A stretch of 25,739 bases of DNA from an uncultured Candidatus Izemoplasmatales bacterium. GTDB taxonomy: Bacteria > Bacillota_I > Bacilli_A > Izemoplasmatales > Hujiaoplasmataceae. The stretch is taken from contig CAYZPL010000001.1 in NCBI GenBank assembly GCA_964480415.1, positions 1-25,739 on the forward strand, written 5' to 3'. A model generated the notes under the pieces. It saw only the letters and a list, made by a program, of their open reading frames with translations, did no database searches and was not told the origin of the DNA. Made by a program: the position numbers and the translations under genes. Below, in pieces: positions 4,019 through 24,007 of this stretch. Each line of letters opens with the position of its first letter. Position 1 is the stretch's first letter.

Positions 4019-4035
4019 ATATGAAAGGAGAGAAC

Positions 4036-5712: not shown

Positions 5713-6532
5713 ACTGATAATCACATGTGCCATAACCGGAGCGGAGACCACAAAGGAACATAATCCCGCTGTCCCTTATACACCCGAAGAAATGGCTGAA
5801 TCGGCATATGCGGCATATAAAGCCGGGGCTTCCATCATCCATCTGCACGCCAGAACGGAGGATGGCATACCGACACAAGATAAGGATAGATTTAGAATAA
5901 TCATCGATAAAATACTGAAAAAGTGTCCCGATGTCATAATCCAGGTTTCAACCGGCGGAGCGGTAGGCATGTCAAGAGACGAACGCCTGGATGTTCTTAA
6001 CGTAAATCCGGAGATGGCGACACTTGATTGTGGAACGCTTAATTTCGGCGGTGACGACATTTTTGTCAATACCGAGAGCGACATCAGGTATTTCGCCGAA
6101 AAGATGAACACGCTTGGTATCAGCTACGAAATGGAATGTTTTGAAAAAGGACATATAGACACTACCCTGAGATTCATAAAAAAAGGTGTGATAAAGAACC
6201 ATCTGCACTATTCCTTTGTGCTGGGAGTGAGAGGTGGAATGTCCGGAGAAGAAAGGGATTTTATCTTTATGAAAGAAAGTATCCCGAACGATGCCACATT
6301 TTCCGTCGCGGGAATCGGCAGATATGAATTTCCCCTTGCGGAACTGTCAGTCAAGCACGGCGGACATGTCAGAGTCGGACTTGAAGACAACATATATATA
6401 GAAAAAGGGATTTTGGCGAAATCAAACGCGGAACTTGTGGAAAAAGTAGTTCGAATCGCCAAGAAATACGGACGCGAGATCGCGACACCGGCAGAGACAA
6501 GAAGAATATTGGAAATGGAGAAAAGAAGATGA
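5705..6532 (+). CDS. kce: 3-keto-5-aminohexanoate cleavage enzyme (BKACE family)
   Basis: [12 protein letters not shown], metal-binding [21 protein letters not shown]. Start ATG 5705 gives the family-typical N-terminus MDKLIIT. Confidence 0.92.
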
Positions 6533-7572
6533 AGAAATTATGCAAATACGGAACACATAGGGTTTTATCTCCTGAAGGAGCTTTACCTCAAGCAGCGCAA
6601 AAGCTAGACAATAGAATGTTATGTTACGACAACGAAATACTGATAAATGTCAAAACTCTTAACATCGATTCGGCTTCATTCACACAAATCAAGGGAGCTT
6701 GTGACAAAGATCCCGAGAGAATGAAGAAAATGATAATGGAAATTGTCGAACAAAGAGGAAAAATGCAGAATCCTGTAACCGGAAGCGGTGGTATGCTTTT
6801 AGGAACAGTTGAAGAGATCGGTAAAGATCTGCATAAGGATATAAAGGTGGGAGATGAAATCGCTTCTTTGGTATCGCTATCGCTTACACCGCTAAAAATA
6901 GATAAAATACTGGAAATCCACATGGACAAGGATCAAGTAGACATTGAAGGACATGCGATATTGTTTGAAACCGGCATCTTCGCAAAAATCCCTGATGACA
7001 TGCCGCCTCATATAGCTCTTGCGGCACTTGATGTGGCCGGAGCTCCTGCACAAGTGAAAAATCTTGTGAAAAAGGATGATACGGTTCTGATTCTTGGGGC
7101 TGCCGGAAAATCCGGAGTATTGTGCGCCTATCAGGCGAGAAAGAACGCTGGTCCGAACGGAAAGATAATCGGCATCATCCATCACGACACACATAAACAC
7201 GAATTGGAAAATCTAAATGTCTGCGACCATATCATGATCGGCAACGCCAAAAATCCGATGGAGATCTATGAAAAAGTGATGGCTGTGACAAATAACGAAG
7301 GCGTAGACGTGACCATTAACGTTGTAAACGTTCCCGATACGGAGATGGCGACGATCTTGCCGACAAAACCTACAGGTACGGTTTACTTCTTCAGTATGGC
7401 GACCTCATTCACAAAAGCAGCACTTGGAGCCGAAGGCATAGCCGCTGAGGCTTTGATGATAATCGGTAACGGTTATACCAAGAACCATGCCGATATAACA
7501 CTGGACATACTAAGAGAATCCAAAGAAATGTATGATTTGTTTGCGAATAGGTATGGAAAGGAGAATCTATGA
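6529..7572 (+). CDS. kdd: L-erythro-3,5-diaminohexanoate dehydrogenase
   Basis: YGTHRV...[43 protein letters not shown]. Sits between kce and kamA. Confidence 0.9.
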
Positions 7573-8819
7573 TCATAACTAACGATAAATATTTGGAAAG
7601 AAAATCAAAATACTTTCCAAATGTTACCGAGGAACAATGGACAGACTGGCGCTGGCAGGTAAGAAACAGGATCCAAAACGCAGAAGATCTTAAAAAATAT
7701 ATGCCAATCGCTGATGCGGAAGTTGAAGAAATCAGAGAAGTGTTGTCGAAATTCAGAATGGCTGTCACGCCATATTATCTGAGTCTGATTGATCCAAGCA
7801 ATCCGAATTGCCCGATAAAAATGCAGTCTATTCCTTCAATCAACGAACTGCATATTTCCGAGTTCGATCTGGAAGACCCGCTTGCGGAAGAAGTCGATTC
7901 TCCGGTCCCGGGATTGACACATCGATATCCGGACAGAGTGCTGTTTCTGATAACGGATATGTGTTCGATGTACTGCCGCCATTGTACAAGAAGAAGATTT
8001 GCCGGACAAACCGACAAGAGAATGTCGGAAGACAGAATCGAAAAAGCGATAGAGTATATCAGAAACACAAAAGAAATCAGAGACGTATTACTTTCTGGCG
8101 GAGACGCGCTTCTTGTCAATGATGAAATTCTTGAAAGCATAATAAGAAGGTTGAGAGAAATAGAACATGTCGAGGTTATCCGCATCGGTACGAGAACCCC
8201 TGTTGTCCTACCGCAGAGGATAACCGACAATTTAGTCAACATGTTGAAAAAATACCATCCCATTTGGGTCAACACCCATTTCAACCATTATGACGAGATT
8301 ACTATTGAAAGTAAAAAAGCTATCGACAAACTGGCCGATGCAGGCATACCTTTAGGAAATCAGTCAGTGCTTTTAAAAGGCATCAACGATTCCGTCGATG
8401 TCATGAAGACATTGGTTCAGAGACTCGCCTATATCAGAGTAAGACCATATTATATCTATCAATGCGATCTATCTTTGGGAATCGAGCATTTCAGAACTCC
8501 TGTTTCCAAGGGAATCGAAATTATTGAAGGATTAAGAGGACACACTTCCGGTTATTGTGTACCTACTTTTGTGGTAGATGCACCAGGAGGCGGCGGAAAG
8601 ATCCCGATCATGCCAAACTATGTCATATCACAGGCACCGGGAAAAGTGGTTTTGAGAAACTATGAAGGAGTGATCACCACTTACAGTGAACCGTTGTGTT
8701 ATGAAAACCATACTCCTAAGAGCAAAAGCCTGGAAGGTGTCAGCGCGCTTCTATCAGGATATCAGACGGTTCTTGAACCAAAGGATCTCGAAAGAAGGAA
8801 AAGAACATTAAAAAAATAA
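7569..8819 (+). CDS. kamA: L-lysine 2,3-aminomutase (radical SAM, PLP)
   Basis: CSMYCRHC (CxxxCxxC), [39 protein letters not shown]. Confidence 0.96.
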
Positions 8820-9811
8820 TCGAGTTAATTGAAAAACACAAAGTCATAAGCGTTGTCGGCAATGCCAAGAACGCCGGCAAAACCACAGTTATCAACCATA
8901 TCATTGATAACTGTTTTGAGGCTGTGGTAGCCGTGACTTCAATTGGTCTCGACGGAGAGGAAATAGATCAGATAACATATCAGGAAAAACCGAGAATATT
9001 CGCCAAAATCGGATACATTATCGCGACTGCAAAGGATACGCTTAAATCTTTTCAAGCTGAATATGAGATATTGGAAGAGACAGATATCCGAACGTCGATT
9101 GGAACCATTGTCATAGCCAGAATCACAAAAGAAGGCAATGTGCTTGTTGCGGGACCTTCGATCATATCGGATATGCAAAGATTGATCAAGGTGATCGAGA
9201 AATACAAACCAACAAAGATTTTGATCGACGGTGCTTTCTTCAGGCATTCGACAGCCAGATTGTCTCAAGCCACGATCTTTGTTGTTGGAGCCAATCTTTC
9301 GGCTAGAATCGAAAAAGTCGTAAACAACGCGAGACTAAGCATCAAGAAATTCAGCTTACCGGAATATATTGATAAAGCAAAACTTTCCGGAAGGGAAAAA
9401 GTATGTCTAGTAAATGGAAATGAAGAAATCATTGAACTCGGTCATAGCAGTATACTCGGTAAAGGAAAAGAACTTTTTACGGAAACAAACCAAAATGTAA
9501 AATATATATTCCTACCCAAGGCATTGACAAACGATTTTGCGAAAGAACTTGTCAAGAAACGAAAAGAATATGATTTCGACATCATCGTTAATTCACCCGT
9601 GAACATTCAACTTGACGAAACCAATCTGGACAATCTCTTCAAAATCAACAGGCGGATATTTGTTTTGGATTCCGTGAATCTGGTGGCTGTATGCTATAAC
9701 CCGACTTCTCCAAGAGGGTATTCATTCGATGAAAAAGAATTTAGGGAAAAACTTTCCGAAATAACCCAGCTTGAAGTAATCAATGTAAAAGAGGAAATAC
9801 AATATGAATAA
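8807..9811 (+). CDS. kamB: KamB-like P-loop protein, putative lysine 5,6-aminomutase reactivating-factor subunit; start uncertain (ATT 8807 or ATA 8816)
   Basis: The frame is open from 8777. The P-loop-like [14 protein letters not shown] and TSIGLDGE motifs fit this family, and the P-loop lies upstream of the first GTG (8924). The gene occupies the kamA-kamD slot. Confidence 0.7.
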
Positions 9812-11360
9812 ACTGAATCTAGATAAAAACAGAATAATATCCTGCAGGCAATATGCAAAGAAGATAGCCGTCATTGTACAGAATTTCATCGATCTTCATT
9901 CGACCGTCAGCGTCGAAAGGACCGTTCTGAGACTTTTAGGAATTGACGGTGTGGATGAATTCGGCGTACCTGTGCCAAACAGAATCGTCGATGATGTCAT
10001 GAGAGACGGCGACATCAGTCTTGGAATCTCAACATATGTCGCCAGCGCGATTAAAGGCAGCGAACAAGGTTTGGATGAACTTATCAGCGATTATCTGAAC
10101 GACGAGGTTGACATCTGCGGATTTGAATTGGTGGATAAAAACGAAGTTGTGGAAATTCTAAAACCATATTTCACTAAGTATTTGGATATAATCAAGAGAA
10201 ACAAAAAAACTAGAGAAGAATTGATTGGGAAATACGGGCAGAAAAAAACCGACTTGTACGTAATCGTCGCCACAGGCAACATCGATGAAGACGTGGTCCA
10301 AGCAATAGCGGCAGCGAAAGCTGGCGCAGACATAATCGCAGTTATCAGATCGACGGGACAATCTTTGCTTGATTATGTTCCTTACGGAAAAACCACCGAA
10401 GGTTTCGGTGGCACTTTCGCCACTCAGGAAAACTTCAGAATCATGCGCAAAGCTTTGGATAAAGTCTCCGAAGAAGAAGGAAGATACATCAAATTGGTCA
10501 ATTACGCTTCCGGATTATGCATGCCAGAAATAGCTGCGATGGGTGCGATAGAAAGATTGGACGTGCTCCTTAACGACAGCATGTACGGCATCATCTTCCG
10601 CGACATCAATATGCAGAGGACATTCATCGACCAATATTTTTCCCGGTTGATAAATGCTTATTCGGGAATCATAATAAATACGGGAGAAGACAATTATCTG
10701 ACCACCAGCGACGCGATTGAGGAAGCCCACACGGTTTTGGCATCCCAGTTCATCAACGAGGCTTTCGCGAAGAAGGCTCATCTGAAAGAAGAGCTGATGG
10801 GCTTGGGTCACGCTTTCGAAATCAATCCCGATGTCGAAAACGGTTTTTTGTTTGAAATTGCACAAGCCGAGATGGCTAGAGAAATATTTCCAAATGCACC
10901 GTTAAAATACATGCCCCCGACGAAGCATATAAATGGTAATATTTTCCGAGCCTACCAACAGAATGTGATGTTCAACATAGCGACCACTTTGACCGACCAG
11001 TCCATTCATCTTCTTGGTATGATGACGGAGGCGATCCATACGCCGTTTTTGTCAGACAGATACATGGCGATCAAGAACGCGCAGATGATTCAGACCTCGA
11101 TGAAATCATTGGGAGATGAAATTGAATTCAAAGAAAACGGCCTGATCCAGACGAGAGCCAAAGAGGTCTTGGTCGAAGCGGAGAAATTATTGAAGCAGAT
11201 TTCCTCTGACGGACTGTTCAAGACATTGGAAATGGGTATCTTCGCCAATACAAAAAGACTGGTTGATGGCGGAAAAGGATTGACAGGCGTCTTTAAAAAG
11301 CACGATAAATATGTTAATGTAGTGTTGGATAGAATGGAGGAATCGTTCTATGAAGATTAA
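9804..11360 (+). CDS. kamD: D-lysine/beta-lysine 5,6-aminomutase, alpha subunit
   Basis: STVSVERTVLRLLGIDG, YVIVATGNI, AVIRSTGQSLLDYVPYG, NYASGLCMPEIA, KYMPPTKH. Confidence 0.95.
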   Translation: MNKLNLDKNRIISCRQYAKKIAVIVQNFIDLHSTVSVERTVLRLLGIDGVDEFGVPVPNRIVDDVMRDGDISLGISTYVASAIKGSEQGLDELISDYLNDEVDICGFELVDKNEVVEILKPYFTKYLDIIKRNKKTREELIGKYGQKKTDLYVIVATGNIDEDVVQAIAAAKAGADIIAVIRSTGQSLLDYVPYGKTTEGFGGTFATQENFRIMRKALDKVSEEEGRYIKLVNYASGLCMPEIAAMGAIERLDVLLNDSMYGIIFRDINMQRTFIDQYFSRLINAYSGIIINTGEDNYLTTSDAIEEAHTVLASQFINEAFAKKAHLKEELMGLGHAFEINPDVENGFLFEIAQAEMAREIFPNAPLKYMPPTKHINGNIFRAYQQNVMFNIATTLTDQSIHLLGMMTEAIHTPFLSDRYMAIKNAQMIQTSMKSLGDEIEFKENGLIQTRAKEVLVEAEKLLKQISSDGLFKTLEMGIFANTKRLVDGGKGLTGVFKKHDKYVNVVLDRMEESFYED

Positions 11361-12078
11361 ACCATATGGAGATACTCTGAATGACGGGAAAGTCCAATTA
11401 AGTTTCACTCTTCCGGTAGAAATCGGAGCCAAAGGTATCGCCGCCGCGAAAGAACTTGCGAAATCCATGGGCTTGATCGATCCAAGCGTGGTCCACTCAG
11501 AGAAAATCGGTGACAGATTCAGCTTTTATATTGTATATGGTTCAATCACCCATTCAGTGGATTTGGATAAAATCCATGTCGAAGAAATAAAGACAAAACA
11601 TTTGTCAAGAAAAGAGATAGAATCCCTTATAAAGGAAAAGCTGAATAGAGATATTGTTTTCGTCGGTGCTTCGACAGGAACCGACGCTCATACCGTCGGC
11701 ATCGACGCTATCATGAACATGAAAGGCTACGCCGGACATTACGGGCTCGAAAGATATGAGGGAATCAAGGCATATAATCTGGGTTCCCAAGTTCTGAACG
11801 AAGATTTTGTCAGAGAAGCGATAGATAAAAAGGCGGATGTGCTTCTTGTATCGCAGACGGTGACGCAAAAAGACGTTCACATTAAAAACCTCGTGGAGTT
11901 GGTCGAATTGCTTGAAGCCGAAGGAATCAGAGACAAAATGCTTTTGATTGTCGGAGGAGCCAGAATCACTCACGAGTTGGCCAAAGAACTTGGTTATGAT
12001 GCCGGATTCGGTCCAGGTAGTTTCGCTGAAGATGTAGCATCCTTCGCAGTTAATGAATTGATCAAAAAACATGAATGA
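11350..12078 (+). CDS. kamE: D-lysine/beta-lysine 5,6-aminomutase, beta subunit (B12-binding)
   Basis: KPYGDTLNDGKVQLSFTLP, DXHXXG motif TDAHTVG, PLP-site region MNMKGYAGHYGLE. Confidence 0.95.
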   Translation: MKIKPYGDTLNDGKVQLSFTLPVEIGAKGIAAAKELAKSMGLIDPSVVHSEKIGDRFSFYIVYGSITHSVDLDKIHVEEIKTKHLSRKEIESLIKEKLNRDIVFVGASTGTDAHTVGIDAIMNMKGYAGHYGLERYEGIKAYNLGSQVLNEDFVREAIDKKADVLLVSQTVTQKDVHIKNLVELVELLEAEGIRDKMLLIVGGARITHELAKELGYDAGFGPGSFAEDVASFAVNELIKKHE

Positions 12079-12094
12079 CCCGGGAGGGGATAAA

Positions 12095-12619
12095 ATGTAT
12101 ATAAAAAAGACGGATCAAATTGTCACGAAAAACGGAGATACCGGAGAATCAAAAGATTTCGGGAATGAAACATACAAGAAAAACGACATCATATTCGAAG
12201 CCATGGGATCGATTGACGAACTTAGTTCTTTTTTGGGTTTGGCATATCATTTCACGAACTATGAATATATCAAAGAGATCCAAAAAAAGTTACAGATCAT
12301 CAACGCTAGAGTAGCCGTTTCGCCTAAGTCCGATTTGGCCAATAAGATCGACAGGGTCGAAGAACACGACGTGGTTTTCCTTGAGTCGGAGATCCAGAAC
12401 ATTCTCGACCAGAAACCGATTGAGGCGAGGTTTGTTCTTCCTGGTAGTGAAAGAACGCAGAACGGAGCGTTTTTTGACTATGCGAGAACAATAGCCAGGA
12501 AGTGTGAAAGAAGGCTGGTTGAGTACTTGGAAAAACACAAAAGAACCGATCTGAAAATCGAATTGAAATACTTGAACAGATTGAGTGATTATCTATTTGT
12601 TCTGGCAAATATTCTCTAG
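12095..12619 (+). CDS. PduO-type ATP:cob(I)alamin adenosyltransferase
   Basis: IVTKNGDTG, GSIDELSSFLG, FVLPG, ARTIARKCERR, YLNRLSDYLF. Likely start ATG 12095 after SD GGGAGGGG (12082-12089); 12071 is an alternative. Confidence 0.9.
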   Translation: MYIKKTDQIVTKNGDTGESKDFGNETYKKNDIIFEAMGSIDELSSFLGLAYHFTNYEYIKEIQKKLQIINARVAVSPKSDLANKIDRVEEHDVVFLESEIQNILDQKPIEARFVLPGSERTQNGAFFDYARTIARKCERRLVEYLEKHKRTDLKIELKYLNRLSDYLFVLANIL

Positions 12620-12639
12620 ATTTTGACCTATCGAAATTA

Positions 12640-12681
12640 TTGAATTTTTAACTTTAAAAGTTATAATGACTATGTTATAAT
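12640..12681 (+). promoter_or_regulatory. Putative tandem promoters of the glutamate fermentation operon
   Basis: TTGAAT (12640-12645), 16 bp spacer, TATAAT (12662-12667). A second extended -10, TG-T-TATAAT, lies at 12673-12681. Confidence 0.65.
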
Positions 12682-12692
12682 TATACAAGTGA

Positions 12693-12706
12693 TAAAAACG
12701 CTTACA
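12693..12706 (+). promoter_or_regulatory. Second cre-like operator, between promoter and SD of glmS
   Basis: TAAAAACGCTTACA has one mismatch to TGWNANCGNTNWCA. Its core AACGCTTACA is identical to 3783-3792. Confidence 0.55.
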
Positions 12707-12724
12707 AATAATAAGGAGATAATA

Positions 12725-13129
12725 TTGAAATCGATTGTAATTGGCGTGATAGGTTCCGATGTTCACGCTGTTGGAAACAAGATTATTGAATATACTCTAC
12801 ATAACGCTGGATACAACGTTATAAACATCGGAGTATTATCTTCACAGGAGGATTTTATCAATGCGGCGATCGAGACAAACGCCGATTTGATTATGGTATC
12901 TTCACTCTACGGTCATGGTGAGATTGATTGCAGAGGAATGAGGGACAAATGCATAGAAGCCGGCATAGGAGACATTCCACTTTACGTCGGCGGCAACATT
13001 GTGGTTGGAAAACAGGATTTCTCAGAAGTCAAAGAAAGATTCATGGCGATGGGATTCAACAGGATCTATCCACCCGGGACACCTATAGATGAAGCACTAT
13101 CAGATTTAAAAGAGGACTTGGGAGAGTAA
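12725..13129 (+). CDS. glmS: Glutamate (methylaspartate) mutase, B12-binding small subunit (GlmS/MutS/MamA)
   Basis: [17 protein letters not shown] (DXHXXG), [21 protein letters not shown]. Likely start TTG 12725, 6 nt after SD AAGGAG (12713-12718). Confidence 0.95.
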
Positions 13130-13131
13130 GC

Positions 13132-14514
13132 ATGGCAAACTATTTGCTGATTGATTTTGGTTCCACTTTCACAAAACTTTGTGCAGTTGATTCAGAAGCT
13201 TCCGATATTTTAGCGACAGCTTCTCATTTTACGACTGTCGAAACCGACATTAGCATAGGATATCATAGTGCCCTTAAGAGCATCTATGAAAGCATAGGAA
13301 AAGAGATAAAATTTGATCAAGTAATTGCTTGTTCATCAGCTGCTGGCGGCCTTAAAATGGCCGCTATTGGTCTAGTTGAGGAGCTAACTGTCGAGGCTGC
13401 GAAACGTGTTTGCCTCGGTGCGGGAGCGAAAGTCGACCTGGTATTCTCACATCATATAAACACTAGTGAAGTAAATCAGATAATAGATAAGAAAATCGAT
13501 ATCATTCTGCTTGCCGGAGGTTCAGACGGTGGCAATTCCGAATGTGTCATTTTTAATGCGGAAATGTTGGGTAAAATGGGCATAAAGAAACCGATTGTCT
13601 TCGCCGGTAACAAATCCGCTCAGGACGAAATCAAAGAGATTTTCGATAAGTACGAGATGGACGGATACATCTGCGACAACGTGATGCCGAAAATCAACGC
13701 ACTCAATATCGATAGCGCAAGAGAACAGATCAGAGAAATATTCCTTAAAAAGATCATCGCAGCCAAAGGCATCAAAAAGATAGAAGAGGAAATCGATGAA
13801 GTTGTCTTGCCGACACCGAAAGCGGTACTTGATGCGACATTGCTTTTATCAAGAGGATATTTGGATGAACCTGGTTGGGGCGATATCGTCGTCCTTGACA
13901 TTGGCGGAGCCACAACGGATCTATATTCGATATGCAACGCTTCAAAACGGAGTGACGTGTTGATACACGGGTTGGAAGAACCTTTCGCAAAAAGGACCGT
14001 CGAAGGAGACCTGGGTATGAGATATTCCGCTCCGGGAATTATCAAGGCTTTGACCAGACAGGAAATAGAATTCATAAACAAGGAAAAAGGCGTCGATATC
14101 CAAGCCGAAGTAGCTAAAAGATACATCGATGTGGCATCTCTTCCTGAGAATCAGCATGATGAATTCATCGATCAGCTATTAGCGGAGATGTGCGCATATA
14201 GAGCGATGAACAGACACTGCGGCAAGATTGAGAAAGTGCTGACTCCGATGGGTACGATGTACAATCAGATTGGAAAAGACTTAACGGATATAAGATACGT
14301 GATCGGCAGTGGTGGCGTAACGATCAATTCCAAACATCAAAAAGACATCTTGATAAAAACCACCAACATTTTGCACAACGAAACCGAACTGAGGCCACTT
14401 CATCCGCATTTCATGATAGACACGAGATACATCATGGCGGCTATGGGATTGCTTTCTCAGAAAGAACCGCTATTGGCGCTAAGACTAATGAAGAAGTACA
14501 TAAAAAGAATTTGA
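13132..14514 (+). CDS. glmL: GlmL/MutL glutamate mutase reactivating-factor-like ATPase (ASKHA fold)
   Basis: [51 protein letters not shown]. Lies between glmS and glmE. Confidence 0.92.
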
Positions 14515-14524
14515 GGAATATGAT

Positions 14525-15982
14525 ATGGAGCTAAGAAACAAAAAACTTACCGAGGAAGAATTTCTGCAAATAAGAAAACAAGTTTTGACAAGTTGGAAAA
14601 CAGGTAACGAAAAAGAGTTGGACTTGGACAAGGCAGTAGATTATTTGAGAAACGTACCTGAGCATAAGAATTTCGCCATCAAACTGAATAAAGCTAAAGC
14701 TGAAGGCTTGACTCTTGTCCAGCCTAGAGCCGGCGTGCCGGAACTGGACGAGCATATAAAGTTATTACAATATCTGGAAAAATGTGGTGCTGATTTCGTT
14801 CCATCTACCATAGACAGCTATACCAGACAGAACAGATATCAGGAAGCCGAAAAAGGATTGGAAGAAAGCATCGCCAAACACAGGGCGCTTCTCAATGGAT
14901 TTCCGGCTGTCAACTATGGCGTCAAAATGTGTAAAAAAGTCTATGAATCAGTAAATGTTCCAATCGAAGCAAGACATGGAACACCCGATGCGAGACTATT
15001 GTCGGAAATCATCCACGCAGCGGGATGGACTTCAAATGAAGGTGGAGGGATTTCCTATAATATCCCCTACGCCAAATCGGTTCCGCTAGAAGTATCCATC
15101 AAGAATTGGCAATACTGCGATCGTCTTGTCGGATATTACGAAGAAAGAGGAATAAAGATCAACCGCGAACCTTTCGGACCGCTTACCGGCACTTTGGTTC
15201 CGCCATCAATTTCCAATACAATAATGATAATCGAAGCGCTTTTGGCAGCTGAACAAGGTGTCAAAAACATTACGGTCGGGTATGGAATGGGCGGCAATCT
15301 GATTCAGGACGTAGCTGCCATCAATGCGCTTTATGACCAGACGAACCGCTATTTGAAGAAATACGGGTACAAAGACATGGAAGTAACAACCGTATTCCAT
15401 CAGTGGATGGGAGGATTCCCGACGGATGAAGCTGAAGCAATGGCTTTGATATCCTTCAGTTCGACTGTCGCGGCTTTATCGAAAGCGACAAAACTGATTA
15501 CCAAATCACCACAGGAATCAGTTGGAATTCCGACAAAGGAAGCAAACGGATTGGGTATAAAAGCTTCTAAATTCATCGTCAATATGTTGAAAGATCAAAC
15601 AATGTCGGACAGCAAAGATCTGGAAGAAGAAATAGCACAGATCAAAAAAGAAGTGGATTGCTTGATGGACGCCATTATGAAAGTCGGCGAAGGCGATTTG
15701 GCAATTGGTACAGTGAAAGCTTTCAAACAAGGACTTATTGACGTTCCGTTCGCGCCAAGCACTTGCAACGCAGGCAGGATTCTGCCGGCAAGAGACAACG
15801 ACGGACGCATAAGAATTCTTGAATTCGGCAACTTGGGATTTAGTGAAGAAATCAAAGAATTCCACCATAAGAAAATCGCAGAAAGAGCAAAATCGGAAAA
15901 CAGAGCGATATCTTTCCAATTGACAGTGGATGATGTTTACTCGGTTAGCAAAGGAAAATTAATTGGAAGACCACAAAAATAA
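14525..15982 (+). CDS. glmE: Glutamate (methylaspartate) mutase, epsilon subunit
   Basis: [59 protein letters not shown]. Confidence 0.96.
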
Positions 15983-15991
15983 GGTGAAAAT

Positions 15992-17236
15992 ATGAAAATC
16001 AAGGACATAATCTTAACAAAATCTTACACCGGATTCTTTTTCGATGATCAGAAAGCGATAAAATCCGGGGCAGTCTCAGACGGCATGATGTATATCGGTG
16101 AACCGGTCATACCGGGATTCTCGTCAATCCGTCAAAAAGGGGAGGCTATCTCAATCCAGATCATGCTGGATGATGGGTCTGTCGGCTACGGAGATTGCGC
16201 AGCGGTACAATATTCAGGTACCGGAGGCAGGGATCCTTTGTTCCTTGCGGACGAATACATCCCTTTCATCGAAAATGAAATCAAACCCCGACTGATTGGC
16301 GAGGACTTAAGTAATTTCAAACCGTTAGCCGAGAAATATGACAAGATGAAAATCAAAGGCAAAAGACTTCATACTGCTATAAGATATGGCCTCACACAAG
16401 CGATTTTGAGCGCTGTAGCCGTAAATAACAGGTTGACTATGGCGGAAGTCGTGAGAAAAGAATATAATATTGTCGAGGAAGTATATCAACCCGTTCCTGT
16501 ATTCACACAAAGTGGCGACGACAGATACACAAACGTCGACAAGATGATTTTGAAGGAAGCAGATGTATTGCCGCATGCCTTGATCAACAACGTCAATGAT
16601 AAACTCGGACAAAACGGCGAGATACTTCTTAATTATGTAAAATGGCTCAGTAACAGAATTATGAAATACAAACCGAATGAAAAATATCATCCGGTACTGC
16701 ACATAGATGTTTACGGTACAATCGGCATGGCGTTCGATAATGATATCGATAGGATCGTCGATTACCTCATAGAACTTGAGAAAGCCGCCGAACCTTTCAC
16801 ACTTCGTATCGAAGGCCCGATCGACGGCGGAAACAAAGAAGACACAATCTATTATTTGAAAACAATAACAAAAAAACTCAACGACAGATATTCGAAATTG
16901 GAAATCGTCGCCGATGAATGGTGTAACACTCTTGAAGACATCATCGATTTCGCAGACGCGGGCGCAGGACACATGTTACAGATCAAAACCCCTGACCTAG
17001 GCGGAGTGAACAATGTCATCGAGGCGATACAATATTGTAATAAGACCGGAGTGGGTAGTTATTGCGGAGGAACTTGCAACGAGACGAACATCTCGGCGGA
17101 AGTGACCACCAACATAGCGATCGCCTGCAAGGCGACCCAATGTCTGGCAAAGCCGGGCATGGGAGTAGATGAAGGATTCATGATTGTCAAGAATGTGATG
17201 AACAGAGTATTAGCAATAGCGAATCAAAGGAGATAA
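15992..17236 (+). CDS. mal: Methylaspartate ammonia-lyase
   Basis: GFFFDDQKAI, GDCAAVQYSGTGGRDPLF, QSGDDRY, LPHALINN, catalytic QIKTPDLGG, GGTCNET. Confidence 0.96.
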   Translation: MKIKDIILTKSYTGFFFDDQKAIKSGAVSDGMMYIGEPVIPGFSSIRQKGEAISIQIMLDDGSVGYGDCAAVQYSGTGGRDPLFLADEYIPFIENEIKPRLIGEDLSNFKPLAEKYDKMKIKGKRLHTAIRYGLTQAILSAVAVNNRLTMAEVVRKEYNIVEEVYQPVPVFTQSGDDRYTNVDKMILKEADVLPHALINNVNDKLGQNGEILLNYVKWLSNRIMKYKPNEKYHPVLHIDVYGTIGMAFDNDIDRIVDYLIELEKAAEPFTLRIEGPIDGGNKEDTIYYLKTITKKLNDRYSKLEIVADEWCNTLEDIIDFADAGAGHMLQIKTPDLGGVNNVIEAIQYCNKTGVGSYCGGTCNETNISAEVTTNIAIACKATQCLAKPGMGVDEGFMIVKNVMNRVLAIANQRR

Positions 17237-17241
17237 AGGAT

Positions 17242-17496
17242 ATGATAGCGACCGCAGGAACCAAAGAATCAAACGATTGTTTTGTGACTGTAAAACCGGC
17301 TGATAAGAGAAAAGTGGTCATCAACAGTGTTGTTGGAGCGTTTTTCTATGACCAGATCAAAGAGACTGTCGAGAAAACATTGGATGAATTGAATGCAGAC
17401 AACGTCGAAATTGTAATTGAAGATAAAGGCGCATTGGATTATACAATCAAATCCAGAGTCATAAGCGCTGTGAAAAGGATGAGGAGCGATGTTTAG
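17242..17496 (+). CDS. citD: Citrate/citramalate lyase acyl carrier protein (gamma subunit)
   Basis: AGTKESND carries the prosthetic-group serine; DKGALDYTIKSR also conserved. Confidence 0.9.
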   Translation: MIATAGTKESNDCFVTVKPADKRKVVINSVVGAFFYDQIKETVEKTLDELNADNVEIVIEDKGALDYTIKSRVISAVKRMRSDV

Positions 17497-18343
17497 GTCT
17501 CTCCTTTTTATTCCTGGAAACAATCCTTCGATGATCCAGAATGCGGACATCTTTTTAAGCGATGCCATCATTTTCGATCTGGAAGATTCGGTGAGCATTT
17601 CCGAAAAGGACAACGCCAGAAATCTCATCCTCAATTTCCTATTGACGAAACAATCATTCGCGCAGACGATCATTCTAAGAGTCAATCCTGTGGATACATC
17701 CTTCTTCAAAGATGATTTGAAACTCCTTTCTTCAAAAAGAATAGATTATGTGCTTTTGCCGAAAGCGACAAAGGAGAATCTTGATATTCTCAATGAAGAA
17801 CTTTTCGCATATGAAAAAGAAAACGACCTGAAAGAGACCAAAACAATCGCTTTGGTAGAACAGGCAAAATCGATAATAGAAGTAGAAACAATCGCAGAGA
17901 AACCAAGAGTGGAGGCTCTGTTCCTGGGTGCTGAGGATTTGTGCAACGATCTGGAGATCGAAAGAACCGGCAAGGGAAAAGAGATCCTGTTCGCAAGATC
18001 TAAAGTGATCTATGCGGCCGCAGCAAACAACATCATCTCAATTGATACGCCTTACACAGACATATATGACGAAGAAGGTCTTAGAAAAGACGCGCTGAGA
18101 GCGTATGCGCTGGGAATGAAGGCGAAAGCGTGCATCCATCCCAATCAGTTGGAAATTGTCAACGAGGTGTTTTCACCTAAAAAAGCTCAGATCGAATGGG
18201 CTAAGAAGGTTTTAGTGGCTTATGAAGAGAATTTGAAAATAGGAAAAGGCGCATTCAAAGTCGATGGCAAGATGATTGATAAACCGATAATCGAGAAAGC
18301 GCAGAAAATAATCGACAAAGCCAAGAAATACCAATTATTGTAG
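17489..18343 (+). CDS. citE: Citryl/citramalyl-ACP lyase (beta subunit, HpcH/CitE family)
   Basis: RSLLFIPGNNP, IFDLEDSV, LGAEDL, IDTPYTD, KACIHPNQ, DGKMIDKP. Confidence 0.92.
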   Translation: MFRSLLFIPGNNPSMIQNADIFLSDAIIFDLEDSVSISEKDNARNLILNFLLTKQSFAQTIILRVNPVDTSFFKDDLKLLSSKRIDYVLLPKATKENLDILNEELFAYEKENDLKETKTIALVEQAKSIIEVETIAEKPRVEALFLGAEDLCNDLEIERTGKGKEILFARSKVIYAAAANNIISIDTPYTDIYDEEGLRKDALRAYALGMKAKACIHPNQLEIVNEVFSPKKAQIEWAKKVLVAYEENLKIGKGAFKVDGKMIDKPIIEKAQKIIDKAKKYQLL

Positions 18344-18350
18344 GTGTAGT

Positions 18351-19868
18351 ATGAAAAACGGAGTCGGAAGAAACATTCCTGATGACTTGAGACCATTTGT
18401 CTCAAGCGATGATTACAAAACAAAAGAGCGGAGATTGATTCCGAAGAAAAAAAGACAGTCAAAAACTGTTTTTTTCAATGATCTCGCATCCGCTTTCGAT
18501 CATTTCGGAATATCGTCCGGCAGTACGATATCATTCCATCATCATCTACGTAATGGAGACCATGTTCTTGAGGATGTCTGTGAAATCATTGATCAAAGGA
18601 ACCTAAGAAACATCCATCTTGCTCCAAGTTCGATTTTTCCAAGTTACACAAATTTGGTGAAACTGATCGAGAATCAGAATGTTACCGACATTCATACAAA
18701 TTATGTGAATGGTCCGGTAGCGAAAGCCATCAGCCTAGGAAAATTGGCTGGCAAACTGGTAATGGACACACACGGAGGCAGAGCCAGAGCGATTGAAAGC
18801 GGCGATCTCAAGATCGACTATGCATTTCTGGCGTGTCCGGTTGTGGACAAGCAGGGCAACGGTACTGGCGCCTTTGGTAAAAGCGCATGTGGAACTTTGG
18901 GTTATGCTGTAAGTGATCTCGAATATGCAGGTAAAGTGATACTAGTGACGGATTCCTTAGTTGACAAACTTGATGAATTCCAGCTGAATGGCGAATATGT
19001 GGACGCGGTTGTCGTCCTTGATTCGATTGGTGATTCCGAAGGCATCATTTCGGGTACGACGCAACTGACGAAAGATCCGATCGGCCTGAAAATAGCCAAG
19101 GATTGTTCAATGCTACTAGATGATTTGGGTATGATAGAAAACGGATTTTCCATGCAGACGGGAGCCGGAAAAACATCATTGGCAGTCGTGAAATATGTCA
19201 AGGAACTCATGGAAAGAAAAGGAGTCAAAGGTTCTTTCGGTTCAGGCGGAATAACGAAGAGTTATGTAGAAATGCTCGAACAGGGATTGTTCGACAAACT
19301 ATACGATGTACAATGCTTTGATTTGGACGCGGTAGAATCATTCCACAAGAACAAGAACCATTTGGCGATGTCAGCTTCAGAGTATGGTAATCCATTCGAA
19401 AAGGATCCCGTTTGCGACAGACTCTCTTTCGTCATTTTGGGAGCTGCGGAAATAGATCTTGATTTCAATGTGAATGTAACGACGGATTCGTTGGGTAATC
19501 TTATCGGTGGAAGCGGCGGACACGCCGATATTGCGAAAGGTGCTGACTTGACAATAATAATTTCCCCATTGATCAAATCGAGAATACCGCTCATCAAGGA
19601 TGAAGTCATGACAGTGACCACTCCGGGAAGCGACATTGACATTCTGATCACCGAAAGAGGGATTGCGATAAATCCGTTGAGAAAGGATTTATTGAAAAAA
19701 CTGCAAAACAGGCCTCTGCCTGTATATACGATAAAGGAACTATATGATTTGGCGCACAGTATTACAGGTAAACCAAGAAAGATAGAAACAACCGATGAAA
19801 TAGTCGGCTTCGTTGAATACAGGGATGGTACAATCATCGATTGCATCTATAAAACGAAGGTATTCTAA
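18351..19868 (+). CDS. citF: Citrate/citramalate:acetyl-ACP transferase (alpha subunit)
   Basis: ISFHHHLRNGD, THGGRARAI, CGTLGYA, QTGAG, GGSGGHAD, VTTPG, VEYRDGTIID. Confidence 0.92.
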   Translation: MKNGVGRNIPDDLRPFVSSDDYKTKERRLIPKKKRQSKTVFFNDLASAFDHFGISSGSTISFHHHLRNGDHVLEDVCEIIDQRNLRNIHLAPSSIFPSYTNLVKLIENQNVTDIHTNYVNGPVAKAISLGKLAGKLVMDTHGGRARAIESGDLKIDYAFLACPVVDKQGNGTGAFGKSACGTLGYAVSDLEYAGKVILVTDSLVDKLDEFQLNGEYVDAVVVLDSIGDSEGIISGTTQLTKDPIGLKIAKDCSMLLDDLGMIENGFSMQTGAGKTSLAVVKYVKELMERKGVKGSFGSGGITKSYVEMLEQGLFDKLYDVQCFDLDAVESFHKNKNHLAMSASEYGNPFEKDPVCDRLSFVILGAAEIDLDFNVNVTTDSLGNLIGGSGGHADIAKGADLTIIISPLIKSRIPLIKDEVMTVTTPGSDIDILITERGIAINPLRKDLLKKLQNRPLPVYTIKELYDLAHSITGKPRKIETTDEIVGFVEYRDGTIIDCIYKTKVF

Positions 19869-21130
19869 TGGAATCTATCAAAGAAAAAATCCTGAGTTCA
19901 AGAGAAAGAAGAAGATGGTTATATATTGAAGACAAACTTGTAGGTGACGTTATAATGGTTTGTCTGAAAGCGAATATTCCCGGAGACAACAAAAACATCC
20001 AGGAAGCGTATATGCTTTTGGGACTGTTTTACAATCTTGTAGTCAAGGATTCTAGTGAGCATATATTCATCGATTCTGACGACGGGCCGCTTTATTTCTT
20101 TTTGTTCGAACATAAAGATGGCGAAAAGCTGAAGAAAAGGATGATGGAAATCGAAGATGCACATGAGCTTGGCAGGTTCATCGACATCGATGTGTATCAG
20201 AAAGACCATGAATTTTCTCGGGAAACTCCAAGAAAATGTTATATATGCGATGACATAGCATTCAACTGCATAGTATCCAAAAAGCATACACTCGAGGAAA
20301 CACTGTCGGTAATCCGCGAAAAAGTCAACGGATACTTTTACAATGAAATCCAAAAGATGGTATTTGACAGTATAAAACTGGAACTGGATCTTGATCCGAA
20401 ATTCGGACTTGTTACTCCGAAGACAAACGGATCGCATCCGGACATGGATTACGAGCTGATGCTAAAAGCCGCGAAAACGATTCTTCCTTTCATAATGGAA
20501 ATGTACGATCTTGCCAGTTCAAGTGATGAAATAGAAAGCATTTTTCCTGCAATCAGGAAAATTGGCATTAAAGCAGAAAACAAAATGTATGAAACCACCA
20601 ACAATGTCAATGCGTATAAGGGATTGATATTCCACATGGGTCTGTTTGTTTCAGCTTTCGCATTTTTGCTTTATCATCACGATTACGGATGGGATGTACC
20701 GGATCTGGCTTCGTATCTGGTCAGCGGCATACTTGATGAATTAGATCAGCCAGGAGATTCCTACGGTCACGAGGCATATGAAAAATATGGCATACTCGGA
20801 GCGAGAGGAGAAGCCGCGCTCGGGTTTACACATGTCTTGGAAGCATTGGAATATCTCAGTGATTTTTCCGTCGAAAAGCGCATCGAGACGCTCGCATATC
20901 TGATATCCGAGGTAGAGGATACCAATCTGTTGAAGAGATCCGGGTCTTATGATGCATATATTGAGAACAAAGAAAAATTCTTTGCTTTGGTCAAATACAA
21001 AAAATCGCTGGTTGAAGAGCTTGACGAGTACTGCAGAGATAACAATCTCAGTTTCGGCGGAAGCGCCGATCTGTTGATTGTAACAATTTTCATGAAAAAA
21101 TTGAATACATTTTACAAGTTATATGAATAG
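19868..21130 (+). CDS. citXG: Fused CitX-CitG (holo-ACP synthase plus triphosphoribosyl-dephospho-CoA synthase)
   Basis: N-terminal CitX-like region (KANIPG, GRFIDIDV, RKCYIC...C...KKH) and C-terminal CitG-like region (PKFGLVTP...GSHPDMD, YKGLIF, GARGEA, LSFGGSADLL). Confidence 0.85.
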   Translation: MESIKEKILSSRERRRWLYIEDKLVGDVIMVCLKANIPGDNKNIQEAYMLLGLFYNLVVKDSSEHIFIDSDDGPLYFFLFEHKDGEKLKKRMMEIEDAHELGRFIDIDVYQKDHEFSRETPRKCYICDDIAFNCIVSKKHTLEETLSVIREKVNGYFYNEIQKMVFDSIKLELDLDPKFGLVTPKTNGSHPDMDYELMLKAAKTILPFIMEMYDLASSSDEIESIFPAIRKIGIKAENKMYETTNNVNAYKGLIFHMGLFVSAFAFLLYHHDYGWDVPDLASYLVSGILDELDQPGDSYGHEAYEKYGILGARGEAALGFTHVLEALEYLSDFSVEKRIETLAYLISEVEDTNLLKRSGSYDAYIENKEKFFALVKYKKSLVEELDEYCRDNNLSFGGSADLLIVTIFMKKLNTFYKLYE

Positions 21131-21211
21131 GTGAGAAATTGGCTTTTTCTGAATGGTATATGGATATTTTTTTGATAACCTCAAAAAAATAATCATTTTG
21201 GAATTTTTTTC

Positions 21212-21240
21212 TTGACTTTACCTAATACAAATAGTAAAAT
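21212..21240 (+). promoter_or_regulatory. Sigma-A/70 promoter of the tRNA-Val/tRNA-Thr pair
   Basis: TTGACT (21212-21217), 17 bp spacer, TAAAAT (21235-21240). Confidence 0.85.
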
Positions 21241-21259
21241 TGTTATGCGAGAAAAATTC

Positions 21260-21335
21260 GGAGGTTTAGCTCAGCTGGGAGAGCATCTGCCTTACAAGCA
21301 GAGGGTCGGCGGTTCGAGCCCGTCAACCTCCACCA
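21260..21335 (+). tRNA. tRNA-Val (anticodon TAC)
   Basis: Acceptor GGAGGTT/AACCTCC, anticodon arm TCTGC-CTTACAA-GCAGA, GGTTCGAG, CCA encoded, 76 nt. Confidence 0.97.
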
Positions 21336-21336
21336 T

Positions 21337-21413
<77 letters not shown>

Positions 21414-21442
21414 TTTACAAACTGTGCAGATATGCATTAAAT

Positions 21443-21477
21443 ATAATGGCGTACGGAATGTACGCTATTATTTTTTT
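21443..21477 (+). terminator. Intrinsic terminator of the tRNA pair
   Basis: 12-bp stem ATAATGGCGTAC (21443-21454) / GTACGCTATTAT (21460-21471) with one G-U pair, loop GGAAT, then TTTTTT. Confidence 0.85.
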
Positions 21478-21495
21478 CCTAAGGAGCAAGTCAGG

Positions 21496-22884
21496 ATGAC
21501 CGAAACAAGCGAAAAAAAGACAAAGTTGATATTGTATGGCAAACCGATTTGGAAGGGTATAATCGCTCTTAGCCTTCCGGTCTTCTTGGCAAATATAGTC
21601 AAGACTATGCAAGACCTTGTGGATGCGGTCACCTTGGGTCAATTACCGGATATAACTCAAGCGACGCAATCGCAAGGTGCGGTCGGCTTGACTTGGCCGA
21701 TTTTCTTTATCTTCCTATCGTTCGGAATCGGTCTTAGTATCGCTGGAAATGCGCTGATCGGACAGTACGTCGGTAAGAACGATATGAAAAATGCTAAAAA
21801 ATTTGCGAACAACGTATTGTTACTTAGCTTGGGACTTGGTATATTATTTAATATAATGGTATATATGTTCGGACCGATGATTTTGAGTCTGATGCAAGCG
21901 CCAGGAGACAAGCTCGATTATGCGGTGACCTATATCCGAATCAGAAGTTTCGGGTTGCCGATCATGTTCCTGTCTTTCGGATTCCAAGCCGTAAGACAAT
22001 CCACCGGAGATACGACCACACCCGTTATAGTCAGTACGATGGCGATCGTACTGAACATAATATTGACGCCGATTTTCGTTCTCGTGTTCCATTGGGGCAT
22101 AATGGGAGCCGGACTGTCGACAATGATCGCAAATAATCTAATGTTGCCGGGAATAATCTTTTTCTTGCTAAAAAGCAAAACCGGAATCAAGGCGACATTC
22201 AACATCAAGAGTTTCAATCTCAATATAGCCAAGGACCTTTTCAATGTCGCAATACCGGCTTCAATCGGACAATCGATCCAGGCGGTCGGATTTGTAATCT
22301 TGAACGCAAAGATAAATTTTTATGGCGATGCGGTGTACAATGCGTTCTATCTGGGGAACCGGATCAATTCAATCGTGCTGTTCCCGATTATGTCCATTAG
22401 CGCGATAGTCGCAATCTATATCGCACAGAATGTCGGTGCCGGAAATATTGCAAGAGCCAAGCAGGCGATCAGACAAAGCATGTTCATCAGTGTGGCATTT
22501 ATGATACTGGGTATTATTTTGATTCTACCCTTAAGGAAGGATATCATCGGATTGTTCACAAACGATCCGGCGACAATCGAACAAGGAGTACAATATATGC
22601 TCTATATCGGCTTAGGTTTGCCTCTGATGGCCATTTTTCAGATTTTCTTCTCCACATATCAAGGTAGCGGAGAAACGAAATTTGCGATGGTGCTGGGGAT
22701 TGTAAGACTATGGATATTCAGATTGCCGCTTGTATTCTTGGCTATAGCATTTACGAATATGGGACCATTAGGCATCTGGTTGTCTATGCTTATCAGCAAT
22801 TTCCTAGCAACCGTATTGGGATATTTCCTATATAGAAGAGTTAAATTCGTACCAAAAATAAGACGCAGTTTTGCGGAAGGGTGA
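21496..22884 (+). CDS. MATE-family efflux transporter
   Basis: About 12 TM segments, internal repeat of the GQYVG/AQNVGAG...AK motifs, GDTTTP and GSGETK loops. Likely start ATG 21496 after SD AAGGAG; the track start at 21424 runs through the terminator. Confidence 0.92.
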   Translation: MTETSEKKTKLILYGKPIWKGIIALSLPVFLANIVKTMQDLVDAVTLGQLPDITQATQSQGAVGLTWPIFFIFLSFGIGLSIAGNALIGQYVGKNDMKNAKKFANNVLLLSLGLGILFNIMVYMFGPMILSLMQAPGDKLDYAVTYIRIRSFGLPIMFLSFGFQAVRQSTGDTTTPVIVSTMAIVLNIILTPIFVLVFHWGIMGAGLSTMIANNLMLPGIIFFLLKSKTGIKATFNIKSFNLNIAKDLFNVAIPASIGQSIQAVGFVILNAKINFYGDAVYNAFYLGNRINSIVLFPIMSISAIVAIYIAQNVGAGNIARAKQAIRQSMFISVAFMILGIILILPLRKDIIGLFTNDPATIEQGVQYMLYIGLGLPLMAIFQIFFSTYQGSGETKFAMVLGIVRLWIFRLPLVFLAIAFTNMGPLGIWLSMLISNFLATVLGYFLYRRVKFVPKIRRSFAEG

Positions 22885-22888
22885 TTAG

Positions 22889-24007
22889 ATGTATAAATTG
22901 GTATATCCGGATTATGATCATTCGATTATGAATATCACTAATTCGATTCTAGAATATTACGGAGCTGAACATAAGCACGCCACGTTACCGATACTGGATA
23001 AAGAACTTGCGAAGAAATATCGCAATGTGGTTCTTTTTCTTGTCGATGCGATGGGGTCTGAGATACTACTGAGACATAAGAAGAACGCCAAACTGCTTTT
23101 GAAATACCAAAAGGACGTTTTGACTTCGGTTTATCCTTCGACCACTGTTGCGGCTACGACATCAGTCCTTACAGGGTTGTCACCGGTCGAAACTGGTTGG
23201 ATCGGTTGGTTCCAATACATCAAAGAAGAAGACAAAAGCATAATATTCTATTTCAATGAAGATTTCTATGACAACAGTTACAAATTCGATTACAATGTAT
23301 CGGAAAAATATGTTCCGGTTGTAGATGTATATACTAAGATCAAGAATGCCAGAAGCGACGTTCACACCGAAGAAATATTTCCTGAATTCAGAGAACCAAA
23401 ACACAATAAATTCATCAAGATATGCGAGACCATAGCGGAAAAGACAAAACTACCCGGTGAAAATTACATATATGCATACTGGGAAAAACTTGATTCCTAT
23501 ATGCATAAAGAAGGTCCCGGGGCCGAAAAAATCCTCAACCATGTCAAAGAAATCAATGATGGATTCAAATACTTGCAGGAAAATATCGCCGATGACACAT
23601 TGTTGATATTGACGGCGGACCACGGTCAGGTGGATATCGAAGAAATTCCAATAGACGATTATCCTGATTTGGTCGAAACATTTGTCCATGCGCCTTCAAT
23701 CGAAACCAGAGCGACGGCTTTCTTCATCAAAGAAGACAAGAAAGCAGAGTTCGAAGAAGCCTTTCTCAAGCATTTTCGTGATAAATTCATCCTGATGAAA
23801 TCCGAAGACGTGTTGAAATCTCATCTTTTAGGATTCGGAAAACCACATGAAAGAGTGAAAGAATTCCTTGGCGATTATATGGCACTTGCCATAGACAAAT
23901 ATGTTTTCAGAATGGCCAAGGGAGACATGGCGCCTTTCAAAGGCCAACATGCCGGACTCAGAAAAGAAGAAATGCTTGTACCACTAATCATCTACGCTAA
24001 AAAATAA
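22889..24007 (+). CDS. Alkaline phosphatase superfamily protein (type I phosphodiesterase / nucleotide pyrophosphatase)
   Basis: LFLVDAMG, TSVYPSTT, DSYMH, LTADHGQ, GQHAG metal and nucleophile motifs. Confidence 0.9.
   Translation: MYKLVYPDYDHSIMNITNSILEYYGAEHKHATLPILDKELAKKYRNVVLFLVDAMGSEILLRHKKNAKLLLKYQKDVLTSVYPSTTVAATTSVLTGLSPVETGWIGWFQYIKEEDKSIIFYFNEDFYDNSYKFDYNVSEKYVPVVDVYTKIKNARSDVHTEEIFPEFREPKHNKFIKICETIAEKTKLPGENYIYAYWEKLDSYMHKEGPGAEKILNHVKEINDGFKYLQENIADDTLLILTADHGQVDIEEIPIDDYPDLVETFVHAPSIETRATAFFIKEDKKAEFEEAFLKHFRDKFILMKSEDVLKSHLLGFGKPHERVKEFLGDYMALAIDKYVFRMAKGDMAPFKGQHAGLRKEEMLVPLIIYAKK

Follow-up and report, generated by a model that had tools for sequence, protein, structure and literature searches.

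We know of no experimentally verified gene for citramalate lyase (EC 4.1.3.22), an enzyme of Clostridium tetanomorphum that was reportedly described by Buckel and Bobi in 1976. Kronen and Berg (2015, PMC4682846) attributed a putative citramalate lyase, carrying the annotation citrate lyase, to the glutamate fermentation clusters of clostridia such as C. tetanomorphum and C. tetani. We investigated a citD-citE-citF-citXG module in a stretch of 25,739 nucleotides (nt) of contig CAYZPL010000001.1 (assembly GCA_964480415.1, forward strand) from an uncultured Candidatus Izemoplasmatales bacterium; this whole stretch is called the window below. The module directly follows the genes of glutamate mutase (glmS, glmL and glmE) and 3-methylaspartate ammonia-lyase (methylaspartase, mal). 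We consider it very probable that (S)-citramalate is the physiological substrate, so that the module would encode an (S)-citramalate lyase (EC 4.1.3.22) rather than a citrate lyase. This reading is based on the genes themselves, their spacing, the intact catalytic residues, the linkage with glm and mal, and the position of the proteins outside the canonical citrate lyase clade. The initial annotation of this DNA had proposed the module as a candidate gene set for citramalate lyase, and trees, linkage and co-occurrence support that proposal. As a general idea it is not new: the citramalate lyase interpretation is already published for clostridia (PMC4682846), and the window is a well-supported new example in Izemoplasmatales.

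The window holds a single long series of genes, all on the plus strand, of which the part under study reads as follows.

12640-12681, plus strand: best sigma-70-like promoter matches, just 5' of glmS (consensus match only, 10 of 12 positions, one with an extended TG)
12689-13129, plus strand: glmS (mutS), B12-binding small subunit of glutamate mutase (NF002612, 214.6 bits, cut-off 110)
13132-14514, plus strand: glmL (mutL), accessory/reactivating protein of glutamate mutase (NF040745, 594.8 bits, cut-off 475)
14525-15982, plus strand: glmE (mutE), catalytic subunit of glutamate mutase (TIGR01503, 758 bits, cut-off 390)
15992-17236, plus strand: mal, 3-methylaspartate ammonia-lyase (TIGR01502, 585.7 bits, cut-off 286)
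17242-17496, plus strand: citD-type gamma subunit, acyl carrier protein (ACP), 84 amino acids (aa), 9.3 kDa (PF06857, TIGR01608)
17489-18343, plus strand: citE-type beta subunit, 284 aa, 32.1 kDa (HpcH_HpaI, PF03328, E 1e-49)
18351-19868, plus strand: citF-type alpha subunit, 505 aa, 55.2 kDa (PF04223, 492 bits; TIGR01584, 525 bits)
19868-21130, plus strand: citX-citG fusion, 420 aa (CitX, PF03802, residues 6-154; CitG, PF01874, residues 167-409)
21260-21471, plus strand: tRNA-Val, tRNA-Thr and a terminator hairpin, the end of the unit (promoter/terminator scan)

GlmS, GlmL, GlmE and Mal each exceed the cut-off of their own NCBIfam equivalog model. The mal stop codon (TAA, 17234-17236) and the ATG of citD at 17242 are separated by the 5 nt AGGAT, and an AAGGAG lies ahead of citD within the 3' end of mal. 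The citD and citE genes overlap by 8 nt, with GAGGAG upstream of citE; 7 nt lie between citE and citF, and citF and citXG overlap by 1 nt (TAATG). These values bear out the tight spacing, and the start of citD 5 nt past the mal stop, that the initial annotation had described. Its statement that the module has no promoter gap also holds: the best promoter-like sites precede glmS, and the 24 matches found over positions 12000-21600 are no excess over the 20.8 expected from shuffled sequence. The first convincing plus-strand terminator is at 21443-21471, 3' of the two tRNA genes.

It is nearly certain that the module encodes an ACP-dependent lyase complex of the CitD-CitE-CitF type. The gamma ACP, a beta subunit with a CitE-like TIM barrel, an alpha subunit of the CitF family of family II CoA/ACP transferases (E 4e-119 against PDB 1XR4) and the CitX and CitG domains are all present, and all four cit open reading frames (ORFs) are intact and keep their catalytic residues. 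The prosthetic-group serine of CitD, Ser10 in the motif E-S-N-D, aligns with Ser14 of E. coli CitD and is conserved in 117 of 119 CitD sequences. Arg64, Glu124 and Asp150 of CitE, which are invariant or nearly so, align with Arg64, Glu112 and Asp138 of Rv2498c from Mycobacterium tuberculosis. Fusions of citX and citG of about 420 aa are the rule among mollicute-type mal-linked loci.

The module might instead encode a genuine citrate lyase (EC 4.1.3.6) that merely neighbours the glutamate genes, as the current annotation has it; we regard this as very unlikely. CitF (525 bits against a cut-off of 501) and CitD pass the NCBIfam equivalog cut-offs of citrate lyase, close homologues bear this name in databases, and all catalytic and prosthetic-group residues are common to both enzymes. 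However, the cut-offs are not diagnostic either way. CitE of the window falls below the citE cut-off (239 against 443 bits), as do the CitX and CitG domains of the fusion with theirs. We dropped both the citE and the citF cut-off as specificity tests: CitE proteins linked to the citrate transporter family 2HCT or to oxaloacetate decarboxylase (OAD) fall short of the former as well (302, 367 and 437 bits), and the latter is passed by all the mal-linked CitF proteins that we tested. That automated annotation would mislabel such genes had been anticipated from the sequence, and public records agree: the CitF homologues of Mycoplasmatota bacterium strain zrk2 (QWC00048.1), Clostridium cadaveris, C. 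liquoris and Desulfosporosinus nitroreducens are named "citrate lyase subunit alpha", and for the CitE proteins of these organisms the records give "HpcH/HpaI aldolase/citrate lyase family protein", "CoA ester lyase" or "citrate lyase subunit beta".

The absence from the window of the usual companions of citrate lyase, namely genes for citrate uptake (2HCT, CitT or CitMHS), oxaloacetate removal (OAD or malic enzyme) and regulation (CitAB or CitO), also argues against this alternative. The initial annotation had seen no citrate transporter, OAD or citrate sensor nearby, and we found no match to citrate transporter families (2HCT, CitMHS and DASS), OAD or CitA/CitB among the other ORFs of at least 80 aa in the window. 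Two of these families, 2HCT and the OAD beta subunit, were sought in the whole assembly, which is 70% complete, and were not found there. The only other transporters in the window are a generic efflux-like MFS protein (2008-3225), a MATE protein and an ACR3 protein. The assembly is a 1.15-Mb metagenome-assembled genome (MAG) of 199 contigs, in which CitF and CitE are each found in one copy.

The linkage between the cit and mal genes is widespread. We called and clustered the ORFs in about 20 kb around 60 CitF genes of a 400-genome sample of the phylum, in 80 named loci from other phyla and in the cit locus of E. coli K-12 (n = 142 CitF loci). Glutamate mutase or methylaspartase genes are found in the same stretch in 83 of these loci, usually in the order glmS-glmL-glmE-mal-(mesA-mesB)-citD-citE-citF-(citC)-(citX)-citG, and these loci belong to Izemoplasmatales, Acholeplasmataceae, Haloplasmataceae, Clostridiaceae, Desulfitobacteriaceae, Tissierellia, Fusobacteriaceae and Negativicutes. 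A citrate fermentation context (2HCT or CitT, OAD subunits, CitAB or malic enzyme; checked with Pfam) is found in another 24 of the 142. A fixed-order linkage with mal that recurs in 83 loci speaks against a citrate lyase that is a chance neighbour. Among named genomes, the nearest CitF loci are those of Candidatus Izemoplasmatales MAGs and strain zrk2 (67-74% identity), and the nearest relatives of the window have the identical arrangement kamD-kamE-adenosyltransferase-glmSLE-mal-citDEF-citXG-MATE. The loci of C. cadaveris and C. liquoris read GntR-glmSLE-mal-mesAB-citDEF-citCXG; this is the cluster layout that was assigned to the putative citramalate lyase (PMC4682846), which supports the linkage argument.

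The two gene families also occur together when whole genomes are compared. The same 400 genomes, among which are genomes that read TGA as a sense codon, were searched for CitF and for methylaspartase, and CitF is present in 60 of them. Methylaspartase is present in all 46 genomes with a non-canonical CitF, including G214 and G218, where mal is on a contig other than that of CitF, and it is absent from all 14 genomes with canonical CitF only (loci L017-L030). We read 46/46 against 0/14 as a strong pattern and not as a statistic, because the sampled relatives are not independent; such perfect co-occurrence also speaks against a citrate lyase. Four genomes of one family (f9; G164, G237, G246 and G382) have methylaspartase without any CitF, and thus require another route of citramalate cleavage, perhaps a CmlAB-type lyase like that of Raoultella or a CoA-dependent route. 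Anaerovirgula multivorans has three CitF genes: one is linked to mal, one is part of an oadA-2HCT-citX-citF-citE-citC-malic enzyme cluster, and there is a third. C. cadaveris and D. nitroreducens have a mal-linked CitF only. The presence of separate mal-linked and transporter-linked sets within one genome fits separate functions.

A phylogeny of CitE and CitF places the window outside the canonical citrate lyases. We made FastTree trees for CitF (139 rows) and CitE (128 rows) and an unrooted IQ-TREE tree with posterior mean site frequencies (PMSF) for concatenated CitE and CitF (64 rows, 805 columns). Every tree has one canonical clade, which unites E. coli with the 2HCT-, CitT-, OAD- or CitAB-linked loci, with a support of 99 for CitF, 95 for CitE and 100 for the concatenated proteins (SH-like approximate likelihood ratio test). 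In the concatenated tree this clade comprises 14 rows with a citrate context, three without context and one linked to mal. The window is found elsewhere in this tree, among the 23 rows of a clade (support 99) in which 22 rows are mal-linked and one is fumarase-linked. The initial annotation had named a comparison with citrate-transporter-linked homologues as a check, and CitE and CitF both stand apart from the clade of E. coli and the transporter- or OAD-linked sets. Nor do they nest within characterised citrate lyases, a placement that the initial annotation had named as refuting its proposal: a tree that constrains the window into the canonical clade was rejected by the approximately unbiased (AU) test under LG+G4 (delta lnL 522, AU p 3.5e-8), which also tells against a citrate lyase. 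In the unrooted tree, the clostridial and fusobacterial mal-linked sets are closer to the canonical clade than the mollicute sets are.

Two smaller groups of loci appear in these comparisons. In a clostridial/Synergistales subgroup of the canonical clade (L145, L156, L130 and L149), genes for an aconitase-family small subunit stand next to citDEF, accompanied in L145 and L156 by genes for a CitA-like sensor/CitB, malic enzyme and 2HCT; the substrate in this subgroup may be other than citrate. A small non-canonical citDEF group (L055 of G218, L132, L134, L141, Treponema L127 and L142) has mal-type CitF residues and is neighboured by malic enzyme, a GntR regulator or nothing informative. At least the L055 set probably also serves the methylaspartate pathway, because G218 has methylaspartase on another contig.

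The initial annotation had also suggested a comparison of active sites, which proved suggestive for CitF and did not separate the groups for CitE. A strict search for columns that are fixed differently in the two groups (at least 80% in each) gave one weak CitF column and no CitE column. The residues listed here come from a relaxed test that asked for conservation in one group and rarity in the other. In the canonical clade, CitF has Ser at 211, Glu at 339 and Arg at 409 (29 of 29 each, window numbering) and Arg at 139 (26 of 29). Mal-linked CitF proteins have Glu, Asp or Gln at 211, a non-acidic residue at 339, Lys, Asn or Ser at 409 and Gln, His or Asp at 139, as well as Met138 (81 of 82), Ser or Ala at 298 and Thr377 (78 of 82). 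The window has the non-canonical residues M138, D139, T140, Q211, S298, A339, T377 and K409. The clade-specific sites adjoin the invariant motifs HGGR (141-144), GGIT (299-302), His337, NVNV (373-376) and Arg411, and the loss of two canonical Arg residues would suit a substrate with one carboxylate fewer. PDB 2HJ0, a structure of S. mutans CitF, reportedly contains bound citrate. Our search turned up no publication on the site at which CitF binds citrate or on the structure of a citrate lyase holo-complex. In Rv2498c, Met133 touches the 3-methyl group of (S)-citramalyl-CoA (PMC6689899), and Val181 is the second methyl contact. The counterpart of Met133 in the window's CitE is Phe145. This position is Leu, Met, Ile, Phe or Val in 79 of 79 mal-linked CitE proteins and Ala in 17 of 24 canonical ones. 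However, CitE does not separate the groups cleanly, because Phe is also found in a 2HCT-linked clostridial subgroup; as this subgroup shares both Phe145 and Leu151, we dropped CitE active-site discrimination.

Several points weigh against a citramalate lyase. First, mal-linked citDEF sets of Negativicutes (L138, positions 8772-11437; Pelosinus baikalensis L178, G446:C11) nest inside the canonical clade. Their CitF proteins are about 70-77% identical to neighbouring CitAB-, 2HCT- or CitT-linked sets, and those of L138 and L178 carry all the CitF signature residues of their CitAB/2HCT-linked neighbours. We looked for convergence in these Negativicutes and found no shift toward mal-type residues, which leaves the signature unsupported as a determinant of specificity; it thus marks a clade, and not a proven specificity. 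These sets reflect either an independent recruitment with promiscuity or a signature that follows the clade and not the substrate. Second, the F...GAEDL motif of the window's CitE is shared by the clostridial 2HCT-linked subgroup. Third, the profile correlation counts related genomes that are not independent. Fourth, none of the papers that our literature search found describes a recombinant CitDEF-type citramalate lyase or its assay on citramalate, and the link from gene to enzyme therefore rests on context. Finally, two proteins were not found in the cluster or in the 70%-complete assembly, namely CitC, the acetate:SH-ACP ligase of this lyase type (no PF08218 match above the cut-off), and class I fumarase, the mesaconase of the pathway.

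The Negativicutes bear on the possibility that the lyase is promiscuous and acts on both citrate and (S)-citramalate, its role being set by context alone. This we consider improbable. The two substrates differ only in CH3 against CH2COO-, and mal-linked and CitAB/2HCT-linked Negativicutes sets of about 70-77% identity have the same residues at the sites where the other clades differ. However, citramalate lyase activity was undetectable in the citrate lyase of E. coli (PMC4682846), and thus the two specificities are separable. Mal-linked and transporter-linked paralogues are kept apart in some genomes, and the clades differ systematically at positions of the invariant motifs.

The gaps at CitC and mesaconase raise the possibility that the module is degenerating or no longer active in this lineage, which we judge very unlikely. 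No true CitC is found in the genome of the window, where a weak CitC-like match turned out to be CoaD, or in the genomes sampled from its nearest genera (g3, g4, g10 and g12), four single-contig genomes among them, and the assembly has no detected class I fumarase. Other genera of the family do have CitC, and nine of the 60 mal-linked loci with both citF and citG lack citC in the locus. On the other hand, the four ORFs are intact with conserved catalytic residues. CitC-less citDEF-citXG sets are retained in several genera at 63-73% CitF identity, which implies selection. The mesaconase gap is most simply due to MAG incompleteness, because class I fumarase is encoded, apart from the cluster, in 39 of the family's 41 genomes. 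In L158-L161, the four loci inspected, the fumarase alpha and beta genes are adjacent, and the proteins are 52-58% identical to the cluster-encoded MesAB of an Acholeplasmataceae-like genome.

As for CitC, it is possible, though we put it forward only tentatively and think it rather doubtful, that an Izemoplasmatales subclade made up of the window's genus and the nearest genera runs an ACP-dependent citramalate lyase without CitC, the thiol being acetylated otherwise. Acetylation might then occur by direct priming from acetyl-CoA or acetyl phosphate, or through an unrelated ligase. If true, CitC-free operation would be a new activation mode for this class of lyases.

By homology with citrate lyase, a catalytic sequence can be proposed for the citramalate lyase. 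The citXG product would serve as holo-ACP synthase and triphosphoribosyl-dephospho-CoA synthase: its CitG part would produce triphosphoribosyl-dephospho-CoA, and its CitX part would link the prosthetic group to Ser10 of CitD, after which the thiol of the group would be acetylated. CitF, as a predicted acetyl-ACP:(S)-citramalate ACP-transferase, would swap acetyl for citramalyl (acetyl-S-ACP + citramalate -> citramalyl-S-ACP + acetate). CitE, as a putative (S)-citramalyl-ACP lyase, would split citramalyl-S-ACP into pyruvate and regenerated acetyl-S-ACP. The hydration of mesaconate would be carried out by an unlinked two-subunit class I fumarase known from relatives, and the cleavage of citramalate to pyruvate and acetate would be the final step of glutamate fermentation.

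This assignment affects how such genomes are read. An environmental Tenericutes study (2020) took citrate lyase genes as evidence of CO2 fixation by the reductive tricarboxylic acid (TCA) cycle (PMC7301438). In our phylum sample, 46 of the 60 genomes with CitF have the methylaspartase-associated type, a sign of glutamate fermentation rather than reductive-TCA CO2 fixation; the latter reading is unlikely for most such Tenericutes genomes. Taken together, the split between the clades, the linkage rule and the residue signature of CitF provide a practical aid to re-annotation and a guide to enzymes for assay. Beyond the published clostridial interpretation, the present work adds comparative evidence, a usable rule of sequence and context, and the question of CitC-free activation.

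The surroundings of the unit show a second amino acid fermentation. A complete-looking lysine fermentation operon lies immediately upstream at 4021-12619 and contains genes for a CoA-transferase, a thioesterase, Kce, Kdd, KamA, KamD, KamE and a PduO-type adenosyltransferase. Transcription may read through from this operon into glmS. Its last gene is the sole adenosyltransferase gene seen in the window, and the junction kamD-kamE-adenosyltransferase-glmS is kept in the nearest relatives. Downstream of citXG (21424-24007) are a MATE transporter gene and a gene of the type I phosphodiesterase/nucleotide pyrophosphatase family (PF01663). These two genes also follow citXG in the CitC-less relatives L053 and L080-L082; in the window, the two tRNA genes and the terminator stand between. 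Free-living wall-less bacteria thus carry B12-dependent glutamate fermentation beside lysine fermentation, which broadens the metabolism usually ascribed to them, centred on DNA and sugars.

Among the closest known systems, the citramalate lyase of C. tetanomorphum and the putative clostridial citDEF-citCXG genes share with the module the pathway position and the gene set, which stands directly after glmS-glmL-glmE-mal. The predicted subunits of 55, 32 and 9 kDa are counted as a likeness to the C. tetanomorphum enzyme, and the main split of the tree does not separate the window from the mal-linked sets of C. cadaveris and C. liquoris. However, the clostridial loci examined have mesAB inside the cluster and separate citC, citX and citG genes, whereas the window lacks mesAB and citC, has citX fused to citG and falls into a distinct mollicute-type subclade. 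The identity between its CitF and the clostridial proteins is about 50-53%, and the host is an Izemoplasmatales-like wall-less bacterium.

The stand-alone (S)-citramalyl-CoA lyases of the CitE-like superfamily, Rv2498c, human CLYBL and Yersinia RipC, share the fold and the Mg/Arg catalytic residues of CitE, and a bulky hydrophobic residue stands at the methyl-contacting position of Rv2498c and of the window's CitE alike. These lyases act on free CoA thioesters without CitD or CitF partners, and CitE of the window scores 199 bits on the RipC_Ccl model (cut-off 375). The two-gene Cml (cmlAB) of Raoultella planticola is reported to convert citramalate directly to pyruvate and acetate (bioRxiv 10.64898/2026.01.16.699985). 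It has the reaction in common with the predicted citramalate lyase and differs in its two genes and its origin in Raoultella; a Cml-type lyase may explain the genomes that have mal but no CitF.

Citrate lyase of E. coli, Klebsiella and lactic acid bacteria (CitDEF with CitC, CitX and CitG) is homologous in its alpha transferase, beta lyase, gamma ACP and CitX/CitG. The gamma ACP with its phosphoribosyl-dephospho-CoA group is common to both, and the catalytic cycle is presumably equal. Unlike citrate lyase, the module lies outside the canonical clade and is accompanied by no CitC, citrate transporter, OAD or CitAB in the window. Its CitF shares 39% identity with E. coli CitF and has no equivalents of the canonical Arg139, Ser211, Glu339 and Arg409, and its predicted product is pyruvate rather than oxaloacetate.

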